From contig CAWBLA010000009.1 of assembly GCA_963789525.1 (NCBI GenBank), positions 332,999-396,998 on the forward strand: DNA of 64,000 nt, given 5' to 3'. The stretch is from an uncultured Planctomycetaceae bacterium. GTDB lineage: Bacteria > Planctomycetota > Planctomycetia > Pirellulales > Thermoguttaceae. Below are positions 1 through 63,640 of the stretch, piece by piece. Under the pieces are notes generated by a model. That model did not search any database and was not told the DNA's origin. It saw only the letters and a list, made by a program, of their open reading frames with translations. Position 1 is the first letter of the stretch. Every line of letters begins with the position of its first letter. A program made the position numbers and the translations under genes.

Positions 1-7
1 AGTCTTC

Positions 8-80
8 GAGGCTGTAGCTCAGTCGGTAGAGCAACGGACTTTTAATCCGTTGGTCCCGGGTTCGAGTCCCGGCAGCCTCA
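8..80 (+). tRNA. tRNA-Lys (anticodon TTT)
   Basis: Cloverleaf read from sequence: acceptor GAGGCTG/CAGCCTC, D-arm GCTC-AGTCGGTA-GAGC, anticodon arm ACGGA-CTTTTAA-TCCGT, T-arm CCGGG-TTCGAGT-CCCGG, discriminator A. CCA is not encoded. Confidence 0.85.
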
Positions 81-184
81 CTGACCGGCCCGCGTGGCTC
101 CTCGCCGCGTGAAAACGCGTGGCCAAAGGTCATGCCGGAGCCTTTCCAGTCGGGCAACTGGCACCGACGGCATAAAGAAAAGAC

Positions 185-934
185 TGTCGCGGTAGGGACG
201 CCGGTTGCCCGGCGCCCCCCGCACGGATCAGTACGTGAAGGATTACTTCATACGGCTCTTACCTCGGGTTGGTGACGATCAATCGCTCATCGGGATAGGG
301 ATGTAGTATCTGGGCGTTGGGAAGCCATCGCCGCGTCAAACGGCGAATCCTCTCCCAAGTCCAAATGCGCCCTTTCTGGCTCCTCCTGCGCAGGATGCGA
401 TGCCACAGACGCTGAACCTGGGTGTGGAATTCGTCGAGGCAGTTGATGTTTCCGGGAACCGCATGGTAGTTGAACCACCCGCGAACCACGGATCGTAACC
501 AGCCACCCACGTTATTCGTGCCACGTCATCCCGTCCACGCCCGGCGCTGCCTGACGTTTCAGCTCGAAAAAGCTGGCCCGCAGCAGTTCCGGATTGACGT
601 GATGCAGCAGCGCGGTGAACCGTATCTTCGTATCCCGCTTCGCTGCTTCTCGTACGCCCAGCAATCCCATGCCTCGCCTCCCCGGCACTGAGTCCGGCGC
701 GAGTAAGGTCCGTGTGGCGTTTCCCTTGGTCGATCCCCTTCCCTCCACGGACTCCGCCGCCGCATTCGTGCCGGCCTTGTTCGCCCGCTTCTCGGGTACT
801 ATGGAATCGTCCGACTCCCTGGAAACGTGCATGTCCGACGTCTGGCCATAAGCCTTCTCGGACCGTCCCCCGCCGCATTGCAGCGAGGGAGTTTCCAGGG
901 TCTCCCGGTTTCCGTGCAAAGAGTTTCCACGCAT
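185..934 (-). mobile_element. Degenerate, probably 5'-truncated group II intron fragment: intron-encoded protein (IEP) ORF remnant plus domain V/VI
   Basis: Minus-strand 226..258 reads GAGCCGUAUGAAG-UAAUC-CUUC-AC-GUACUGAUC. This matches the domain V consensus lower stem GAGCCGUAU with a 2-nt AC bulge, immediately after the IEP stop. A GC-rich hairpin with a GCAA tetraloop follows (candidate domain VI). No room for domains I-III before acs. Confidence 0.55.
259..934 (-). pseudogene. Group II intron reverse transcriptase/maturase remnant (internal deletion)
   Basis: The 140-aa N-terminal piece (512..934) ends in RT domain 0/1 motifs (...LLRASFFELKRQAAPGVDGMTW). The 83-aa C-terminal piece (259..510, other frame) carries the maturase (domain X) motif GWFNYH. 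RT domains 2-7 (~200 aa) are missing. Confidence 0.65.
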
Positions 935-1219
935 GCGCAGGGTCTTCAGACTCCGCGGCGTCCGCGAGCGGCTTGCGATTGGCGTCGCTCATGGTGTTGC
1001 CTTCCCCTTGTCAGGACAAGGTCGGCACGCCAGAAAAATGATTTCGGAGCTCAATGGCTGGCCTGCGTGTGCCCTTGTCAACGCTTCACCCGTCATGTTA
1101 CCATGACCGGCGCATGACTCAGGGCCAGGACGGGTCGCTAGCCCTTTCCCGTACGGCTCTTTCATCCGCTACTCCTTGCCGGCTTTGACCGGCGCTGTCC
1201 CTGACCCCTTTTGGGACCT

Positions 1220-3191
<1,972 letters not shown>

Positions 3192-3547
3192 CTTCGGCCC
3201 TCCCTGACGAACAACCTGTGGTGAGTCGCGACGCGTAAGAAGGATAGCGCGTGCGAGCCGAGGGACAAGGGCATGGGGAGGACAGCTTCCGACGAAGCGC
3301 GACACGGTGCGAAAAACAGCGATGCACCTGAAGTGCCGGGAAAAGGGCGGACAACACATTGAGACCGGAGAGCCCTTACCTGTCAATTTCCATCTTCTCC
3401 GATCGGCGACAGTCTCTTTTTCCTACCATGGGGACGGGGATTCATGGCGACGCCGCGGCACGACACTACGCCTTTCGTTGACGTCGTGGCATGCTTTTTG
3501 GCGACGATCATTTGCTCCGAGGAACTCGAGGGCTGGCCGGGGGCTCC

Positions 3548-3587
3548 TAATCCGTTCGTCCTAGGTTCGAGTTCCGACAGCCTCACT
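3548..3587 (+). repeat. Degenerate direct copy of the tRNA-Lys 3' half (anticodon loop to 2 nt past the 3' end)
   Basis: 35 of 40 positions identical to tRNA positions 43..82 (taatccgtt...ggttcgagt..ccg.cagcctcact), same orientation. Not a functional tRNA: no 5' half, and the T-stem complementarity is lost. Confidence 0.6.
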
Positions 3588-3659
3588 CGCTAGGCCCGCG
3601 GAACTTGTCGATGCGCAAGAACGACGCAGCCGAAAGGCGGCCCGAGTCGTTGCTACCGC

Positions 3660-5351
3660 TCAACCGGAGACGGGGCGCGTGGAAAAGACTCCCGACCCCT
3701 TGTGTGCTTCCTTGTGTGCTTGTGTGTGCCTCCAGGCAAAGACCAGCAGACACATGGCACCGCCCAAGAGCAGCACCAGCGTGCCGGGCTCGGGCGCCGC
3801 CCTGCCCACCGGGCCGGCGGTTACGAAACCGGCGACGTGACCGCCGTACTGGTCACCGAGGAAGCCCAAATCGGAGAGGTTGACTCTCCCATCGTAGTTG
3901 AAGTCGCCCATCGCCCAGGTCGCTCCGGTGGTCAAGCCATAATTATCACCGAGGAAACCGAGGTCCGACAGGTTCACGCTCCCGTCGACGTTCGCGTCGC
4001 CGTAGAGGGTGTATTCCACGGTGATCAACTTGTTGACCGTATCGGCCTTCCAGCCCAAGGTGTTGGCCGTCGTGGCTGTCGAGCTCTGGAACTGGCCGCC
4101 GGCCCAGGCGCCGCCGGCGTAGCTCGCCTTCATCGCCGTGTCGACCGCGGTGGGCGAGGTGCCGCTGTCGGTGTAGTCCAACACCAGCTTGCCGAACTTC
4201 ACGTCCACGCCGGCATTGCTCAAGACCGGCGTCTTGGCGCCAGCCTGCAACACGAGTTTGCCGCCTTCGACGGTCGTCAAGCCGGTGTAGGTGTTGGCGC
4301 CGCTGAGGGTCAAAATACCTGCGCCCACTTTACTAACGGCCAGCACCGCGCTCGCAGAGCCGTCTTTGACAACAGCGTCGAATGAACTGTAGGCGTCGTT
4401 CGTACCAACGATCAACACCGAAGTCGTGCCCGCGGCGTTGTTGACGACCTGCTCAGTTGCCGTGCCGTACAGTCCGCCCACCGACAGATTGTGGCCATTC
4501 AGGTCGAGTGCCGACGCACTGGAGAGATCCACGCTATTCAGTGCGTTCGTGGCCACCAACACTCCGGTACCGTTGGACAGATGCAGATTTGACACCGCAT
4601 CGGTTGCGATCAGACTGAACGTCCGGTTGCCAACGTAAAGGTCATTCGCAGTCAGTGGCCCGCGGTTCAGCACGGTCGGCGATCCGCCATACCAGCCCAA
4701 CCAAAGTGCGTTGGTGTTCACCGCGCGGCCACCCATATCGAGCGTTGAGCCGTTGTCCGTAACATCGAAGCCGCCGGTCAACGCCATGTCGGCGCCTAGC
4801 GTCAGCGTGCTGCCCGAATACACCGCGGCGCTGTCCGTAACGTTCCCCACCGCCACCGTCGTCAGTGCCGAGCCATTATAGAGCCCAACACTGTCCACAG
4901 CATCTGGAGCACCGAAGGTGAAGGAGTTACCGTTATTGACGGTCAAACCATTGCCGGTGAACCCACCGCTCCCTCGCTGCACGATCCCTGTCGCGCCGGG
5001 ACTAAAGCCAATGTACAGGCTGCCGGCGATTGTGAGCTCGGAATTTCCCAAGTCCAACGTCCCGAGGGTGCCGCTGTCGTAACCGACAATAACGGCTGCC
5101 GCACTCTGGTCTTGAGTGAGATTCACGGTCGCCGTGGTAGCGGCCCCGGACGGGTACGTACTGCCGATGAACACGGTGTCCGCGCTGCCCGGAATCGGCG
5201 TGGAGGTCCAAATCGAGGCGTTATTCCAATTGCCACTGCTGATTGTGCCGAGATCGTCGGCCAAGGAAGCCGTTTCTCCAATGGGCACGGCAATTGCGAG
5301 GGACAAGAAAGCCACCGAAGCGACGAAACGAATTTGGTCGTGCTTTTTCAT
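3660..5351 (-). CDS. Secreted PEP-CTERM protein with two dockerin-like repeats and beta-helix-type repeats
   Basis: Signal peptide MKKHDQIRFVASVAFLSLAIAVPIG. C-terminus has two GDANVDGSVNLSDLGFLGDNYG / GDFNYDGRVNLSDLGFLGDQYG repeats, then VPEPGTLVLLLGGAMCLLVFAWR. Intact 564-aa ORF. Confidence 0.75.
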   Translation of the reverse strand: MKKHDQIRFVASVAFLSLAIAVPIGETASLADDLGTISSGNWNNASIWTSTPIPGSADTVFIGSTYPSGAATTATVNLTQDQSAAAVIVGYDSGTLGTLDLGNSELTIAGSLYIGFSPGATGIVQRGSGGFTGNGLTVNNGNSFTFGAPDAVDSVGLYNGSALTTVAVGNVTDSAAVYSGSTLTLGADMALTGGFDVTDNGSTLDMGGRAVNTNALWLGWYGGSPTVLNRGPLTANDLYVGNRTFSLIATDAVSNLHLSNGTGVLVATNALNSVDLSSASALDLNGHNLSVGGLYGTATEQVVNNAAGTTSVLIVGTNDAYSSFDAVVKDGSASAVLAVSKVGAGILTLSGANTYTGLTTVEGGKLVLQAGAKTPVLSNAGVDVKFGKLVLDYTDSGTSPTAVDTAMKASYAGGAWAGGQFQSSTATTANTLGWKADTVNKLITVEYTLYGDANVDGSVNLSDLGFLGDNYGLTTGATWAMGDFNYDGRVNLSDLGFLGDQYGGHVAGFVTAGPVGRAAPEPGTLVLLLGGAMCLLVFAWRHTQAHKEAHKGSGVFSTRPVSG

Positions 5352-5455
5352 AGAGATATGCTCCGTAGTCAAGGCAGGGTCCGAATTAAGACTCCCGCCC
5401 CTTAGTATCCGTCCGACCCCTTACCCCGCCGATCACAGCGATGTTTAATGCATGG

Positions 5456-5737
5456 TCAAAAACTGTCCCGGAAACGTTGCCAGCCACAAAACGCCAAGCC
5501 AAACGTGCCCACGCTCAGCAGAACCAGGGCGGGAGGGTTCAGGCACAGCGGTCGCAGTAACCTCGAAATTATCGCCCCGGTCCGTTCCGGTACTCCCTAC
5601 GGTGCCGCCATCGGCGGAAGTCGTCGAATTATCGGTCAGCCGGAGGTAGACATTCGCTGTGTCGTTGATCGTGGTAAGCGACGAGAGATCAAAGGAAAAG
5701 CCGTACAAGCTACTGCTCGTTGTCGAGTTCCAAGGCG
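5456..5737 (-). pseudogene. C-terminal remnant of a PEP-CTERM protein (no N-terminus or signal peptide)
   Basis: ...NVYLRLTDNSTTSADGGTVGSTGTDRGDNFEVTATAVPEPS. After a 1-nt frame correction it continues ALVLLSVGTFGLAFCGWQRFRDSF-stop, a classic PEP-CTERM anchor. The upstream part is replaced by the 20-bp tandem array. Confidence 0.45.
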
Positions 5738-5780
5738 GGTTTAGAGACTTCCTCCACTCATGGCGGCGCAGGTCGCACGA

Positions 5781-5920
5781 GCGAATCGCCAACGCGAAAT
5801 GCGAATCGCCAACGCGAAATGCGAATCGCCAACGCGAAATGCGAATCGCCAACGCGAAATGCGAATCGCCAACGCGAAATGCGAATCGCCAACGCGAAAT
5901 GCGAATCGCCAACGCGAAAT
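5781..5920. repeat. Perfect tandem repeat: 20-bp unit gcgaatcgccaacgcgaaat, 7 copies
   Basis: Seven identical head-to-tail copies read directly from the sequence. Each unit contains the short palindrome GCGA-A-TCGC. The ORF-track peptides with (FALAIRISRWRFAFRVGDSH)n are translation artefacts of this array. Confidence 0.95.
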
Positions 5921-6831
5921 GATTGTATGCCCGTCGGACAACTGCCAACTATTTATTTCTAAATCGCTGGCGAAGTGTGCGGTCCACGTGCGTACGCGCG
6001 ACCGCCTCTGGGCTGCCCAATAAACGCCCCCAGAAGCCCGCCTCGGCTTTTCAACATGCCGCGAGTGCCAGTTTTACGGCAGGAACGGCTCAGACCGTCT
6101 TTCGGCCGCGTTTCACGCGCCAAAGTGTTGCATGGGCCGGCAAGGGAGGCTGCCGGGACTCGGACCTGGGACCGACGGATTAGCAACCTCCGGCCAATCC
6201 AGGTTCTTTGGAAAAACCGGGGCTCTCGGGCACCACTGGCGCAACAATTGGTCCATGCCGAAATGATCCCGACTTGGACAAGGTCATTGCGGCGTCGTCA
6301 AGCCTGTTCCGATCCAGCCGCCTTCTGAATAAGCTGCGATGCCTGCCCGACGTGGCATCGTTGGGGGTTGGTCGTGCCGATGGAAAAGCGGAGCGTCCGG
6401 TTGCCGTGCAGCCGGGTGTGGCTCAGGTAGATGCAGCCCGAGATGCTCGAGGACAAGAGGCAGGTTCCGGCTGGAGTTGCCATCCTTGGGTGGTACAGTG
6501 CCCCGTCGTGCCGGGCAGTTTCTACCCAGATTTTTTGCCAAATACTTCTGCCAGTTTGTTGCAAGGAGTGCGGAAATTGGTTATGTTAAATTGGTTATGT
6601 TAGCGGTGTAGATCATTAGTCCTGCGGGCACGAGGCAGCGCGTCGACGATCCGTCGCTCTCAGAAACAGTCATCCCAATCGCTGGATGGCACGCGCTGAC
6701 TGGTCTCTCTCCTAAGTCGCCGTTTCGGGTTGCTGTTTCTCGCTGGTGCCGGTCGTGGGCGCGCCGATCGCTCGAACGACGGGGAAACAGTCACACCCTC
6801 TTGCAGCATTTTCGACGAAAGGGCTCGGGCA

Positions 6832-7473
6832 ATGAAGACACGCACTATTGCAGTCGCCGCCGCGTTGGTTCTTTGGGCATCCGTGGGTAAGGCGACGATT
6901 ATCAGCGCGCCGATCGCAGACGACGGCGACGGCGCCATCGTCTGCGACCTCGAGACGACCAACTGGGACGACGCAACCTACACGATGAACATCTACGGCG
7001 AGCAGTTCTCGGCGCCGGGGCATATCGGCAAGGAGTCGCTCGACGCGACGGCGGCGTTCATTACCCCTATCGATGATCCGGATCCGACGGTCACGATGCG
7101 CAACATCATCGACAACGACACCGCGTTCGCGTGGACGGCCTACCACATCAACGTTTACATGGACCAAATCTTTAACTTGTCCGATGCCACGGTGTACATG
7201 CCCGCCACGTCGGAGTCTGGCTGGTCCGGCTCGATTACGGTATCGCCGGCGGCATGGAACGGCAGCCAATACGTCGGGCAAGTGGACTATGTCGCCGGAA
7301 CGCCGATTCCAGTAGGCGGCATGCTCGACTTCAGCTACAAGATGCAGTTCACCGGCACCGTTCACTACTGCCAGGAAATGATCCCCACGCCCGAACCCTC
7401 GACGCTGGTCCTGTTGGGCATCGGCGTCCTTGGGCTGGCGGCCTACGGATGGCGGCGGCGCGATCGAGTCTAG
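6832..7473 (+). CDS. Small secreted PEP-CTERM protein
   Basis: Signal peptide MKTRTIAVAAALVLWASVG. C-terminus PTPEPSTLVLLGIGVLGLAAYGWRRRDRV. Intact 213 codons. Confidence 0.8.
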   Translation: MKTRTIAVAAALVLWASVGKATIISAPIADDGDGAIVCDLETTNWDDATYTMNIYGEQFSAPGHIGKESLDATAAFITPIDDPDPTVTMRNIIDNDTAFAWTAYHINVYMDQIFNLSDATVYMPATSESGWSGSITVSPAAWNGSQYVGQVDYVAGTPIPVGGMLDFSYKMQFTGTVHYCQEMIPTPEPSTLVLLGIGVLGLAAYGWRRRDRV

Positions 7474-7500
7474 GCGATTTATCCTGTATTGTTCGTTAAC

Positions 7501-7535
7501 GAGCCCCACCGATTGACCGGCGGGGCTCTCTTCTT
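7501..7535 (+). terminator. Candidate rho-independent terminator
   Basis: GAGCCCCACC-gattgacc-GGCGGGGCTC (10-bp stem, one mismatch) followed by tctcttctt, 28 bp after the PEP-CTERM gene stop. Confidence 0.4.
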
Positions 7536-8155
7536 GGTGCGCAAGTGCGTGCGATCCGCGTTCAGCACAGACGTGGGTCCCTCCCGGCTGCCACGGCCGG
7601 CGACCCGCACTCCCTTCTCCACCGACGAGTGGGTTTGCGTCGACACATAAGCTACCAGCGAGCCGTCCGCGCCGGTCTGGTTGCCCTGGCCGTTGGTTGC
7701 TTGTTGCCCAGGCTTCGACTGCGCTGCAGCAAGCCATGGGCCGCGTCGAGTTCGCCTATCTCGTTCTGGGCCGGCAGTGCGCGGTTGCCGGGTTCGAGCC
7801 ACCGGCATCGGAGACGATCTGCGTCCAGATTCGTCAAATCCGCAGTGCCGGCGCCTTGCGCGAGCTGTAAGCGGTTGCCTCCGAAACGTTCGGAGGCGTC
7901 AGTCCGCCCGATCGTCGGCGCGTAGGACAATCTCTTACAACCGCGAGAGGTTGTTGCTGCGTCGCGATTCCCGAAAATCCCGATTTTCTTTTCGGCCATA
8001 TCGGTCAAAGTTAGATTAGCCGCGGCCGCTCCTAATGGCGCCGTGCGGGTAAGGTTCTTCCCGATTTGTGACGAAGGAGAATGTTTCAATGGCAACGGTC
8101 GAAACAGGGCGCGCACGAACCGTTGGGCGAAGTCGGGCAGCAAACGGCTCGCGCG

Positions 8156-8898
8156 AAGATTTTGCAGGGGAAGAAGGCATTGGTGACGGGTGGGTCGCGG
8201 GAATTGGGCGGGCAACCGTTTTGGCGCTGGCGGAAGCAGGGGCCGATGTCGCGATCAACTATCAGCGCTGCGCCGAGGCCGCCGAGACCGTCTGCCACGA
8301 CGCCCTCGAACTCGGCGTGCAGGCCCGAACGCATCAGGCCAACGTCTCGAACGAGGATGAGGCCAAACAAATGGTCGAAGACATCCTCGGCGATTGGGGG
8401 GCGATCGATATCTTGGTGAATAATGCCGGCATCACGCGCGACAAGTCGTTCCTCAAGATGTCGCGAACTGCGTGGGACGAAGTGTTGGGAGTGAATCTCA
8501 ACGGGGTCTTCAACATCACGAGGGCCGTTCTGCCGGGAATGGTCGAGGCGGGCTGGGGACGGGTCGTCAATATGGCTTCAATCGTCGGCCAGACCGGCAA
8601 CTTCGGCCAGGCCAATTACGCGGTGACCAAAGGGGGGCTCATCGCGTTGACAATGACGCTGGCCCGCGAGGTCGCGCGCAAAGGCGTGACGGTCAATGCG
8701 GTCGCGCCGGGGTTTATCGAAACGGACATGCTCAAGGAGATTCCCGAGGCCGGACTGGCCGCAATCAAGGCCATGACCCCGGTCGGCCGCCTGGGCAAGC
8801 CCGACGAGGTGGCGGCCGCGGTGGTGTTTTTGGCGAGTCCCCGGGCTAGCTTCGTTACCGGCCAAGTGATTCCGGTTAACGGCGGCATGTACATGTGA
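8156..8898 (+). CDS. fabG: Short-chain dehydrogenase/reductase, 3-oxoacyl-[ACP] reductase FabG-like
   Basis: GKKALVTGGSRGIGRA (after correcting a -1 slip in a G-run near 8212), NNAG, the SDR catalytic tetrad (...YAVTKGG...), and C-terminus PVNGGMYM. Start codon uncertain (possibly TTG at 8162). Confidence 0.7.
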
Positions 8899-8955: not shown

Positions 8956-9162
8956 ATGACTGTGGAAATCGTTGAGATGACGGTGAAGTGCCGTGTGCCG
9001 CGCGCCGAGGCTGAAGACTACATCATCAAGCTTCGACGCGACGAAGAACGACTGCCCGTTCCGCCAGGACTTGTCTGTCGAGACGCGTACGACTGCTACG
9101 AGACGAACGATCCGGATATTACGGTTGTCCGAGCGGGCTATCGGTGCGGTGTGCCGACCTGA
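8956..9162 (+). CDS. Hypothetical small protein (68 aa, 4 Cys)
   Basis: ORF preceded by a strong SD-like GGAGG 7 nt upstream of the ATG, which is unusual in this window. No family recognised. May continue through frameshifts to ~9448. Confidence 0.25.
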   Translation: MTVEIVEMTVKCRVPRAEAEDYIIKLRRDEERLPVPPGLVCRDAYDCYETNDPDITVVRAGYRCGVPT

Positions 9163-9525
9163 CCAGTGGTGGCGACGACGGGAACGGCAAGGCGCGGCGG
9201 AGCGCGGCGACGCAAAAGTGTCCACGCGGCACTGCTCCCCGGCAGAGCCAAGTGCCGAAGTCTGTGCCGTCGCGACCGCGATATGGGGGACGACGCGAGG
9301 CAAGAATGCCCGGCGCTCCGTGTTTCGTCGTGGCGCACTGTTGTGCACACGCACCATGACGCCTCCGGTGTCGAGGTCCTGTCCCTGTTTTCCGGCCTCT
9401 GAGGGGGCTACTCGGCGCAGCAGAAACGGGTATGCAGGTGCGCAATAACGGTTTGACTTTTCTCCGCCGCTCCAAAGAATTGGGTAGTCGCGGCGCCCAG
9501 TGACAATTTCAGAAAGGGAAAAATT

Positions 9526-11133
9526 ATGACCCAGACGCAATTTCAGGCGTCCACCTTGGAGGTGCGGGCGCCGGTCGCGCAGCCCTATGCGGAAATCTTC
9601 ACGCCCGACGCGCTGCATTTTGTCGAGCGACTTGTCGGCGAGTTCCAGGGCATGCGAGATCACCTTCTGGAAGCCCGCAAACAGCGGCAGCGCGAAATTG
9701 ACGCGGGCAACGTTCCCGATTTTCTCTTCGAGACCAGTCGAATCCGCCAGGACGATTGGTCCGTCGCGCCGATTCCCGAACGACCTTTGCGACCGCCGCG
9801 TGGAGATCACCGGCCCGACGGACCGGAAAATGATCATCAACGCGCTGAACTCCGGGGCCAACGTGTATATGGCCGATTTCGAGGACTCCAACTCGCCGAC
9901 GTGGCACAACCTGGTCGACGGGCAGCGAAATCTCTGCGATGCCGTCGATGGCACGATTGACTTCACAAGCCCGGAAGGGAAGCAGTACCGCCTCAATGCG
10001 CAGACCGCCACGTTGATGGTCCGGCCGCGCGGTCTGCATCTGCCGGAAAAACACGTGTGGTTCGGCGGCAGGCCGGTGCCGGGCTGCGCTGTTCGATTTC
10101 GGCTTGTTCTTCTTCCACAACGCCCAGAAGCTGCTGGACAAGGGCAGCGGCCCGTACTTCTATCTTCCCAAGCTGGAAAGCCACCTCGAAGCGCGGTTGT
10201 GGAACGAAGTGTTCCTCATGGCGCAAGACGAACTGGGCATCCCCCGCGGCAGCATCCGCGCCACGGTGCTGATCGAGACGATTCCCGCCGCCTTCGAGAT
10301 GGACGAAATCCTGTACGAGCTTCGCGGACCATTCGGCGGGGTTGAACTGCGGCCGCTGGGATTACATCTTCAGCATCATCAAGAAGTTCCGCAGCATCCC
10401 GAGTTCGCTGATGCCCGACCGGGCCCAGGTCACGATGACCACGCACTGCATGCGCTCGTACTCGCTGTTGGCGATCAAGACCTGCCATCGCCGCGGCATT
10501 CATGCCATCGGCGGCATGGCCGCGCAGATTCCGATCAAGAGCGACCCCGAGGCCAACGACAAGGCGCTGGAAGCGGTGCGGGCCGACAAGGTGCGCGAGG
10601 CGGGCGACGGGCACGACGGCACTTGGGTGGCCCATCCCGGGCTGGTCGGGTTGGCCAGGGCGGCATTCGACGCGAAGATGCCGGAGCCGAACCAGATCGG
10701 CCGCCGCCGCGACGACGTGCACGTCACGGCCCACGATCTGCTGACCGTGCCCGTCGGCAAAATCACCGAGCACGGCCTCTGCCACAACATCGACGTGGGC
10801 ATGCAATACATGGCGGCGTGGCTTGGCGGCAACGGCTGCGTGCCGCTCTACAACCTGATGGAAGACGCCGCCACGGCCGAAATCTCGCGCACCCAAATCT
10901 GGCAATGGGTCCACCATCCCAACGGCGTTCTCGTCGGACGGCCGCGAAGGTGACGCGGGAGATGATTCGCCGCCTGTTCGACGAGCAAATCGGACAAATT
11001 GCGACAGACCGTCGGCGAGGAGGAGTTTGCCCGTGGCAACTACGAGCAGGCCCGCGAGTTGATCGAAGAGATCGTGGTGAAGGACGATTTTACCGAGTTT
11101 ATGACGCTCGTCGGATACGAGCATTTGGACTGA
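9526..11133 (+). CDS. aceB: Malate synthase A
   Basis: Across four frames: [114 protein letters not shown]-terminus [37 protein letters not shown]-stop. Confidence 0.85.
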
Positions 11134-11177
11134 GCCGTTGCGAGGACTCGATCCGCGGCGGCCAGCGGAGGCGATTC

Positions 11178-12593
<1,416 letters not shown>

Positions 12594-12597
<4 letters not shown>

Positions 12598-14220
12598 TGC
12601 CCATGTTCGAAGAGTTTCAGCAAGCGGCGAAAACGATCTTCGAAGCCGCCCAACGCCGTGGAGCGCTGATCCGCAACCCTGGCACCGACCGGCTGAGGGC
12701 CCTTGCGCTGCAGGAGCCCGAGGTCAGGCAGACCGAGCTACGGCAGCCTCTACGCCGAGTCGGAACCGATGTCGCGGGCGGCCAAGAGGCACCGAGAACA
12801 ACGTCGACTCGCAGTTCGGCCACGACGAGCGCGAACTGCTGGAGCAGGCCAAGCACAGTCCTGGCCGACAAGAGAGTCTGATTTCGATCGACGTCGAGGT
12901 CGGCGACGGCACGCGAGGGAATCACCGCGCGGCTGATCGTGCCGCGGACGGTTCGCCCACGTCGCCTACGCGCGGCATGAAGCTGTTTCGAGCCGACCGC
13001 AACCGACGATCCCACCTACCAGGTGGTGATGTTCTTCGACGAGCGCGTTCGAGCAGAACAAGTCCGAAGCCGCTGCCGGAGAAGGACATCACCATCCGCC
13101 TGGCCCACGCCCCGGACGGCCGGATGGTCAAGTTCGTCCGCAACAGCAACTATTTCGGCGAATGGAAGAAGGGCGTGTTCGCCGGCGAAAACTATCGGGC
13201 GAAGCTGCACGGCGACGCCATCTTCCTCCACGCCGGCTGCCGCAAGGACACGCTGGAAAACCGCCGCGGCGTCTACGTGACCAACTACTCGCTGTTCGTG
13301 GCCCTCAGCGCCAACGGCAAGACCAGCACGACTTGCAAGGTGCTCGCCCGCAAGGGCCGCGAGCGATCGTGGCTGATCCAGGACGACGGCGGCACGCTCT
13401 ACCGCGACGGCCGGTTCCGCGGTTTCGAGGCCGGCGGGCTCTGTTCATCAAGACCGACTGCCTCAACCCCGGCGATCAGATCGAGGCCTACTACGCCTGC
13501 CTCCGTCAGAACACGTTCCTGGAGAACGTGTTCGTGACCGAGGACGGCAGCATCGACTTCTACGACTTGTCGCGGACCAGCAACGGCCGCGCCGTGGTCG
13601 AACGCCGCGACTTCATGCACGCGGCCAACGACATCAACGCCCGGCGGATCGACAACCTGTTCCTCATCACCCGCGGCAACATCATTCCCGCCGTGGCCAA
13701 GCTGACGCACGAGCAGGCGGCGGCCTTCATGGTGCTCGGCCAGTCGATGGAGTCGTCGGCCGGCGATCCGACGCAAGCCGGCAAGATCAAGAACGAGTTC
13801 TTCTACGACCCGTTCGTGGCCGGCGACCGCATCCGAGCACGCCAACCTGTTCTACGACATCCTCAAGTCCGACGGCCACATCAACTGCTACCTGTTGAAC
13901 ACCGGCTGGGTGGGCGAAGGAAACTCGTACCAGGACATCCGGCTGGCCGACACGATGGGCATTCTCGATTCGCTGTTCCGCGGCGGTGCGGAAGAGTGGT
14001 ACATGTCGCACAAGACCGGGCTGATGATCCCGCGCTCGGTCCGCGCCATCGACTCGATCCTGATGCATCCGGAGAAACTCTTCGCCGCGGCCGATTTCGA
14101 CGCCCGGCAGCAGGCGCTCAATCGCCATCGGGCAGAGTATATGGACAATTTCCCGGCCTCGATCCGCGGATCAAGGCCGTATTTCAAACCAAAGCGGCCG
14201 CAGTCGGCCAGGTGGCATAA
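12594..14220 (+). CDS. pckA: Phosphoenolpyruvate carboxykinase (ATP) family, divergent
   Basis: [15 protein letters not shown] (cf. YaGEmKKgiF), P-loop-like [52 protein letters not shown]...[17 protein letters not shown] (cf. LVNTGWnGtGkRIslkdTRaIIdAIlnG). Frameshifted. 5' end approximate. Confidence 0.65.
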
Positions 14221-63551: not shown

Positions 63552-63590
63552 TGGAAAGTGGTCACAGGTCAGCCGCCAGCCACCGCATTC

Positions 63591-63632
63591 TGACCTCTGA
63601 CCTCTGACCTCTGACCACTGACCACTGACCTC
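63591..63632. repeat. Heptamer tandem repeat TGACC(T/A)C x6
   Basis: tgacctc tgacctc tgacctc tgaccac tgaccac tgacctc, read directly, ending 9 nt before the frr ATG. Confidence 0.85.
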
Positions 63633-63640
63633 TCCTCCCC

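Follow-up and report, generated by a model that had tools for sequence, protein, structure and literature searches.

Seven perfect 20-bp repeats beside a truncated PEP-CTERM gene: a probable young minisatellite grown from native leader DNA

How does a perfect tandem array come to stand where the front of a surface-protein gene would be expected, and did the array take the place of what is missing? The question is raised by a stretch of 64,000 nucleotides (the window), in which seven perfect copies of GCGAATCGCCAACGCGAAAT occupy positions 5781..5920, upstream of the remnant of a PEP-CTERM gene whose coding strand is the minus strand. Each 20-bp unit holds the 9-bp dyad GCGA-A-TCGC. Tandem Repeats Finder reported the array at 5781..5921 with a period of 20, 7.1 (7.05) copies, 100% matches, 0% indels and a score of 282, which makes it by far the strongest repeat of the window. 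A pattern search allowing up to three mismatches found copies starting at 5781, 5801 and so on to 5901, exactly seven in the 64 kb and none elsewhere. The seven identical, palindrome-containing copies reported in the first-pass annotation are thus real, and the search for the 20-mer elsewhere that it had proposed gave no further copy in the window. The number of copies expected by chance was 0.01 and none of 100 shuffles reached seven. The edges of the array are sharp: no trace of the unit is left in the 20 bases on each side, and no decayed copy borders the array, which is consistent with a recent origin. Near the right end of the window, at 63589..63633, lies another tandem repeat, TCTGACC, with 6.4 copies at 94% identity.

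The sequence downstream of the array is the back end of a gene. An ORF at 5445..5948 (minus strand) passes through the array into a sequence ending in NFEVTATAVPEPS, and the PEP-CTERM tail, ALVLLSVGTFGLAFCGWQRFRDSF followed by a stop codon, lies in a different frame, after a 1-nt indel; the GC3 phase shifts from 0 to 2 at about 5530. When this single nucleotide was repaired, a PEP motif, a transmembrane helix and a basic tail were all in place, and the repaired tail scored 22.9 bits against Pfam PEP-CTERM PF07589 (cut-off 20.7) and 18.3 against TIGR02595 (cut-off 16). In NCBIfam, the last ~70 residues of the remnant align only to the C-terminal ends of PEP-CTERM families of 190-260 aa. It has no start codon, no signal peptide and no N-terminal domain, residues 1-136 being deleted, and it does not amount to a complete ORF. 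We also considered that an N terminus might be hidden upstream and recoverable after error correction. This possibility was rejected, since neither the N-terminal 136 aa of the orthologue nor the deleted DNA could be found anywhere in the window by tblastn and blastn. A PEP-CTERM C-terminus without signal peptide or N-terminal domain had been proposed from the first reading of the sequence; that description holds, and no intact signal-peptide ORF is recoverable in the window after error correction.

The repaired 96-aa remnant returned no homologues when it was used as a query. The orthologue was reached indirectly, via the neighbouring large gene, whose 563-aa product led to ENA ERZ25039495 contig_3572 (L008), the closest retrievable relative, at ~87% DNA identity. 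The features of the window that this comparison defines are the following.

3660..5351, minus strand: intact gene for a 563-aa PATR/dockerin/PEP-CTERM surface protein (Pfam domains), ~100 nt downstream of the remnant
5456..5746, minus strand: remnant of a small PEP-CTERM gene, equivalent to residues 137-232 of the 236-aa orthologue, with 82/96 residues (85%) identical to the L008 protein
5746..5747, no strand: deletion junction 34 bp away from the array, where the window lacks the 517 bp of L008 9071..9587
5747..5780, minus strand: retained 5' leader of 34 bp, TCGTGCGACCTGCGCCGCCATGAGTGGAGGAAGT, between the array and the deletion junction, collinear with L008 9038..9070
5781..5920, minus strand: tandem array of seven perfect 20-bp units, ATTTCGCGTTGGCGATTCGC in gene orientation, apparently an amplified native leader element
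5919..5948, minus strand: sigma-70-like promoter candidate, TTGGCA-18-AATCAT (or TTGGCA-15-TACAAT), immediately upstream of the array
5949..6027, minus strand: upstream non-coding region homologous to L008 8989..8908; the homology stops near 6027-6040

L008 aligns to positions 4507..5747 of the window at 87% identity and to 5902..6027 at 86%. Its orthologue of the small gene, at 9181..9891 and directly upstream of the large gene, is intact and encodes 236 aa with the signal peptide MRRLNLLYGCIGAVVCAWGGLANA. L008 also carries exactly one 20-mer-like unit, ATTTTGCGTTGACGATTCGT at 9018..9037, which differs from the window unit by three transitions and sits at the transcription-start end of a ~165-nt leader, ~145 nt upstream of the ATG. 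Read in the direction of the gene, the order in L008 is TTGACA-18-AATCAT (8990..9019), one unit, TTGTGCGACGTGCGCCGGTATGAGTGAGGAAGT, 110 more leader nucleotides and the ATG; in the window it is TTGGCA-18-AATCAT (5948..5919), seven units, TCGTGCGACCTGCGCCGCCATGAGTGGAGGAAGT (5780..5747) and then CTCTAAACCCGCC, which corresponds to L008 from 9588 onward. If one copy of the array is retained and L008 9071..9587 is left out, the two sequences align collinearly from end to end, and the 120 extra bases of the window equal six extra units. Of the deleted 517 bp, 110 nt belong to the 5' UTR and 407 nt to the coding sequence (the ATG, the signal peptide and ~136 codons), and the junction 5747|5746 shows no microhomology.

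Two earlier suggestions do not withstand this comparison. The array had been said to replace the 5' part of the gene, and the missing part was in fact lost in a separate deletion, with 34 collinear bases standing between the two; the repeat had also been suspected of destroying the gene, and the small gene is dead because of the 517-bp deletion. By the same comparison, the array is to be read as non-coding leader DNA that neither replaced nor inactivated the gene. The continuous ORF noted at first does exist at 5445..5948. The array within it is nevertheless non-coding and the ORF is a by-product of the unit, which contains a stop codon in none of its six frames, so that mechanical ORFs span the array on both strands.

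Several further properties of the leader were looked at. When folded, the array forms an imperfect hairpin of considerable length (RNA, -80 kcal/mol, z = -2.4; DNA, z = -1.8), a weak signal that is compatible with slippage-prone DNA. A hairpin within the unit, UCGC-GUUG-GCGA, was rejected as a constrained RNA structure, as it is not conserved in L008, and a known riboswitch or leader RNA was likewise rejected, Rfam giving no match in window 5000..7000 and none in the L008 leader. The 5' leader of L008 contains, at 9057..9176 (plus strand), a 39-codon upstream ORF, MSEEVAVSAKDQCAGTVSFGWVVSCMPSVECVPACSCRR followed by a stop codon; it terminates within the Shine-Dalgarno region, only a few bases ahead of the main ATG, and in the window the deletion reduces it to MSGGSL and a stop. 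Such an ORF could be due to chance in GC-rich DNA.

All these observations are best accommodated, with a probability that we put at about 0.72, if the array is a young minisatellite (VNTR), generated by slippage from a native leader element beside an independently truncated gene, non-coding and nearly neutral. According to this reading, a small PEP-CTERM gene and then a large PATR/dockerin/PEP-CTERM gene form a two-gene unit, and a single 20-bp stretch of its 5' leader, at the transcription-start end, was amplified from one to seven copies in the lineage of the window. Tandem amplification would most likely have occurred by replication slippage, probably aided by the quasi-palindromic GCGA/TCGC blocks of the unit. 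A separate 517-bp deletion, 34 bp downstream, took what remained of the leader together with the start codon, the signal peptide and ~136 codons, leaving a dead C-terminal remnant of the small gene, and the array would most likely be a neutral or nearly neutral by-product of a decaying, rearrangement-prone locus. The amplification, the deletion and the collinearity can be read off the alignment with L008; slippage and neutrality are what we infer from them. The impression of a repeat that consumed the front of a surface-protein gene would then resolve into two unrelated small events in a visibly reshuffling locus.

The direction of both changes can be argued from the relative. An intact signal-peptide gene in L008, against a startless fragment in the window, assigns the deletion to the window lineage. 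For the array, with one genome for comparison, expansion after the split is the simplest polarity, because seven identical copies stand against a single copy whose three differences in 20 match the divergence of the surrounding non-coding DNA (~14%). The converse, that an array of seven contracted to one in the L008 lineage, would need the seven copies to have been kept identical across that same ~14% flanking divergence. The recent expansion first deduced from the zero divergence among copies is borne out by the single, slightly diverged copy of the closest available relative. In two respects the locus also matches a VNTR: head-to-tail copies of one unit, with no spacers and 100% identity, and a copy number at the homologous site of 7 in the window and 1 in L008, the one relative compared. 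That comparison supplies the copy-number contrast among relatives that had been proposed as a check.

Other relatives bear on the neighbourhood of the array. L007, the closest relative for the right-hand neighbour (a PEP-CTERM gene at 6835..7473), from which it was reached, shares synteny and homology with the window only over 6525..7579, a region that does not cover the array, and in L009 and L010, more distant relatives of the large gene, the small upstream gene is missing. In the conserved upstream region of the right-hand gene, which encodes 213 aa, there is a perfect 14-bp tandem duplication, two copies of AAATTGGTTATGTT at 6574..6601; L007 has a single copy of this unit, AGATTGGTTATGAT. 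Lying ~650 bp from the array and single-copy in L007, the duplication indicates that short tandem duplications recur in the non-coding DNA of this lineage. Repeat number also differs within the large gene: a ~350-bp segment (window 4507..4897) is present once in the window and in four or five tandem copies in L008 10812..12176, at 87-91% identity, and the large surface protein accordingly varies in its number of internal repeats, from 563 aa in the window to 901+200 aa, frame-split, in L008.

Because the 563-aa gene is intact, the leader may still matter, and this is a point against strict neutrality. The promoter-like site at 5919..5948 is the only one in 5300..6800, and the homologous L008 site, TTGACA-18-AATCAT, scores 10/12. 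As a predicted promoter, it would set the start of transcription in the first repeat copy. The array lies outside the predicted -35/-10 spacer and, if transcription does start inside the first unit as predicted, units 2-7 lengthen the leader. The order of small gene and then large gene is conserved in L008, where there is no terminator-like site between the two, and the 563-aa gene is probably co-transcribed from the candidate promoter above the array. The array may therefore be carried in the leader of a transcript that is still functional.

These features bring into play a second explanation, that of a contingency or phase-variable repeat that tunes expression: the second gene of the operon, for the 563-aa surface protein, would still be expressed, and the array in the operon's 5' leader would alter leader length or structure, or the number of regulator-binding sites, as units are gained or lost, and would thereby grade expression. 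The repeat tract does begin right after a promoter-like site conserved in L008, upstream of PEP-CTERM surface-protein genes, the intact large gene lies downstream on the same strand with no terminator-like site before it in L008, and copy number differs between lineages (7 and 1). A precedent is hmwA, in which repeat number was inversely correlated with transcript level (PMC2424069). The dyad, moreover, differs symmetrically between the two genomes, GCGA-A-TCGC in the window and ACGA-A-TCGT in L008, and its preservation by a double change from G..C to A..T could hint at a constrained binding site, which also speaks against the neutral reading. However, all differences in this stretch are C/G-to-T/A transitions, so that the symmetric change, being two among several of these, may be chance (a rough estimate gives p ~0.05-0.1). 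Conservation of the unit does not exceed that of the non-coding DNA next to it (3/20 against ~14%), and a unit of 20 bp is on the long side among classical contingency repeats. The next gene downstream is dead: a truncated gene that has neither start codon nor signal peptide offers nothing to switch, and a contingency reading cannot apply to it. An effect of the array on the intact 563-aa gene is conceivable; the promoter and the co-transcription on which it would depend are both predictions. Altogether, we consider a tuning repeat unlikely. The stronger proposal, in which the array is an active dial whose copy number (1 or 7) grades or switches the 563-aa protein, possibly through a regulator recognising the GCGA-A-TCGC / ACGA-A-TCGT dyad, seems quite unlikely. 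If it were true, a free-living planctomycete-like bacterium would possess a contingency-type locus, and the array gains interest only if its copy number is variable and tunes the adhesin-like 563-aa gene.

The quality of the assembly is a further point against the preferred reading of a young minisatellite, since the left third of the window is rich in indels, housekeeping genes included. Genes there are split over several frames while GC3 stays at 0.8-0.9:

1119..3386, minus strand: acs (acetyl-CoA synthetase), frame-split with about 6 shifts, high GC3
8068..8898, plus strand: fabG-like reductase, frame-split, high GC3
about 9600..10950, plus strand: malate synthase, frame-split, high GC3
about 11140..12430, plus strand: isocitrate lyase, frame-split, high GC3
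about 12980..14220, plus strand: PEPCK (PEP carboxykinase), frame-split, high GC3

Further to the right, ORFs of 2.6-4.8 kb (up to 1587 aa) are intact. The split core carbon-metabolism genes probably reflect a locally poor long-read consensus rather than pseudogenisation, and with so many frameshifts in core metabolic genes, single-base frameshifts are not to be read here as biology. The remnant itself differs from L008 by two 1-nt indels, an extra G in the run 5532..5534 (GGG instead of GG) and a missing G in the A-run 5458..5462. Falling in homopolymer runs of an indel-rich region, both are treated as possible errors, and the frameshift in the tail may be a sequencing error.

Could the array, or its copy number, then be an artefact of an error-prone long-read metagenome assembly? 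The frame-split acs, malate synthase, isocitrate lyase, PEPCK and fabG genes, with their high GC3, do suggest indel errors, the related assembly has Flye-style contig names and split genes of its own, and a second perfect short duplication lies only 650 bp away. Long-read consensus errors are, however, mostly 1-nt homopolymer indels, which six exact extra copies of a 20-mer do not resemble; the register is exact, the edges are sharp, the flanks are collinear with the relative and any long read spans 140 bp. Neither the 517-bp deletion nor the 120-bp expansion is an error of the homopolymer-indel type, and an artefact is very unlikely to account for the array.

The surroundings bear the marks of mobile DNA. 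In addition to an intact tRNA-Lys, the left end of the window contains two partial copies of it:

8..81, plus strand: intact tRNA-Lys(UUU)
3534..3600, plus strand: partial tRNA-Lys 3'-half copy, of which 3534..3584 matches the other partial copy at 82% over 51 nt and was found through it
6196..6130, minus strand: partial tRNA-Lys 3'-half copy, of which 6146..6182 matches the tRNA at 92% over 37 nt (E = 7e-8)

Each partial copy spans the anticodon loop and everything from there to ~15 nt beyond the 3' end, and both share an upstream extension that is absent from the intact tRNA, so that they look like att-site remnants. In inverted orientation they bracket a 2.6-kb segment with both PEP-CTERM genes and the array, and the conserved module 3787..6027 lies inside it; no tRNA-Lys fragments were found in L008. 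Right at the 3' end of acs, at 940..1162 (minus strand), domains D1-D4 of a group II intron are matched over the full length of the model (RF02005, 178 bits). No D5/D6 match reached the threshold, and Pfam recognised nothing in the 218-aa ORF downstream (336..992); this intron may be truncated or lack an ORF. Immediately past the tRNA-Lys fragment on the right, the stretch 6310..6520 (minus strand), within the ORF 6298..6564, has a coding-like GC3 of 0.8-0.9. The ORFs of 5949..6600 gave no Pfam or NCBIfam match and 6310..6520 has no homology to L007 or L008; this stretch may be a gene remnant. L008 in turn carries a serine recombinase gene and a 109-aa tyrosine-integrase fragment (1..485 and 6045..6374), a few kb from the module. 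With its tRNA-Lys fragments, its group II intron fragment and its limited synteny with L007, the region that holds the array is rearrangement-prone, and the module stands in mobile-element-scarred DNA in both genomes, with flanks that are non-syntenic between them.

Such a setting invites comparison with protein-binding direct repeats brought in by a mobile element, namely replication-origin iterons or a centromere-like partition site, as iterons and parC/sopC-type sites are direct repeats that resemble a 20-bp unit (about two helical turns) present in seven copies with an internal dyad, and the locus lies between att-like tRNA-Lys fragments. This explanation is extremely improbable: in L008 the unit is single-copy native leader DNA at the same position relative to the same gene, the neighbours of the array are PEP-CTERM genes, the window has no adjacent rep, par or integrase gene, and the seven copies, all perfect, adjoin each other instead of being spaced and slightly degenerate. 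Exact scans found no array of the 20-mer in the genome, metagenome and viral contig collections; it was absent from the viral contigs and occurred in genome and metagenome contigs only as single chance copies with unrelated flanks (Alphaproteobacteria, Eisenbacteria, Thermomicrobium). A search with 5700..6100 returned no plasmid match. The array is not a CRISPR either, as had been recognised from the sequence, because a 20-bp unit at exactly 20-bp spacing has no spacers; Pfam searches of the remnant ORF, of the PEP-CTERM genes on both its flanks and of all ORFs in 5949..6611 gave no Cas domain, the only matches being PATR, dockerin and PEP-CTERM.

How does the locus compare with known systems? 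The small PEP-CTERM (exosortase-sorted) proteins of ~190-260 aa (NCBIfam THxN NF038125, NF038129 and PepA NF033554) share with the remnant the C-terminal end, that is, the PEP-CTERM motif, transmembrane helix and basic tail. The remnant nonetheless scores far below the cut-offs of these families and is missing the signal peptide and ~136 N-terminal residues, so the window copy is a pseudogene remnant and not a member gene. In Haemophilus influenzae, 7-bp tandem repeats upstream of the adhesin genes hmw1A and hmw2A grade transcript level by their number (9-28), and they, too, are situated between promoter elements and the beginning of a gene or operon for a surface protein of the adhesin type (PMC2424069). 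In contrast, the unit described here measures 20 bp instead of 7 bp, the array is followed first by a dead gene, which leaves the second gene as the one on which an effect would have to act, the array is known from its sequence alone, and the host is environmental and probably a planctomycete, not a host-adapted pathogen. Plasmid or phage iterons and centromere-like arrays likewise consist of several ~20-bp direct repeats with a short internal dyad, but have replication or partition genes next to them, which this array lacks, its unit being a single-copy chromosomal leader element in the relative. Bacterial VNTRs and minisatellites, such as the intergenic repeats of the MIRU-VNTR type, are generated by slipped-strand mispairing. 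With these loci the array shares head-to-tail units longer than 10 bp, a non-coding location, a copy number that differs between relatives (7 and 1), high identity between copies and no evident coding role; it differs from them in that its copies are all perfect and its edges not degenerate, as in a very young array, and in its promoter-proximal position beside a freshly truncated gene. The feature adds one more example to a known kind, here a young VNTR within a promoter-proximal leader, next to an independently truncated PEP-CTERM gene, and it would offer a clean snapshot of a bacterial minisatellite being born from single-copy sequence, with the ancestral-like state kept in a relative.
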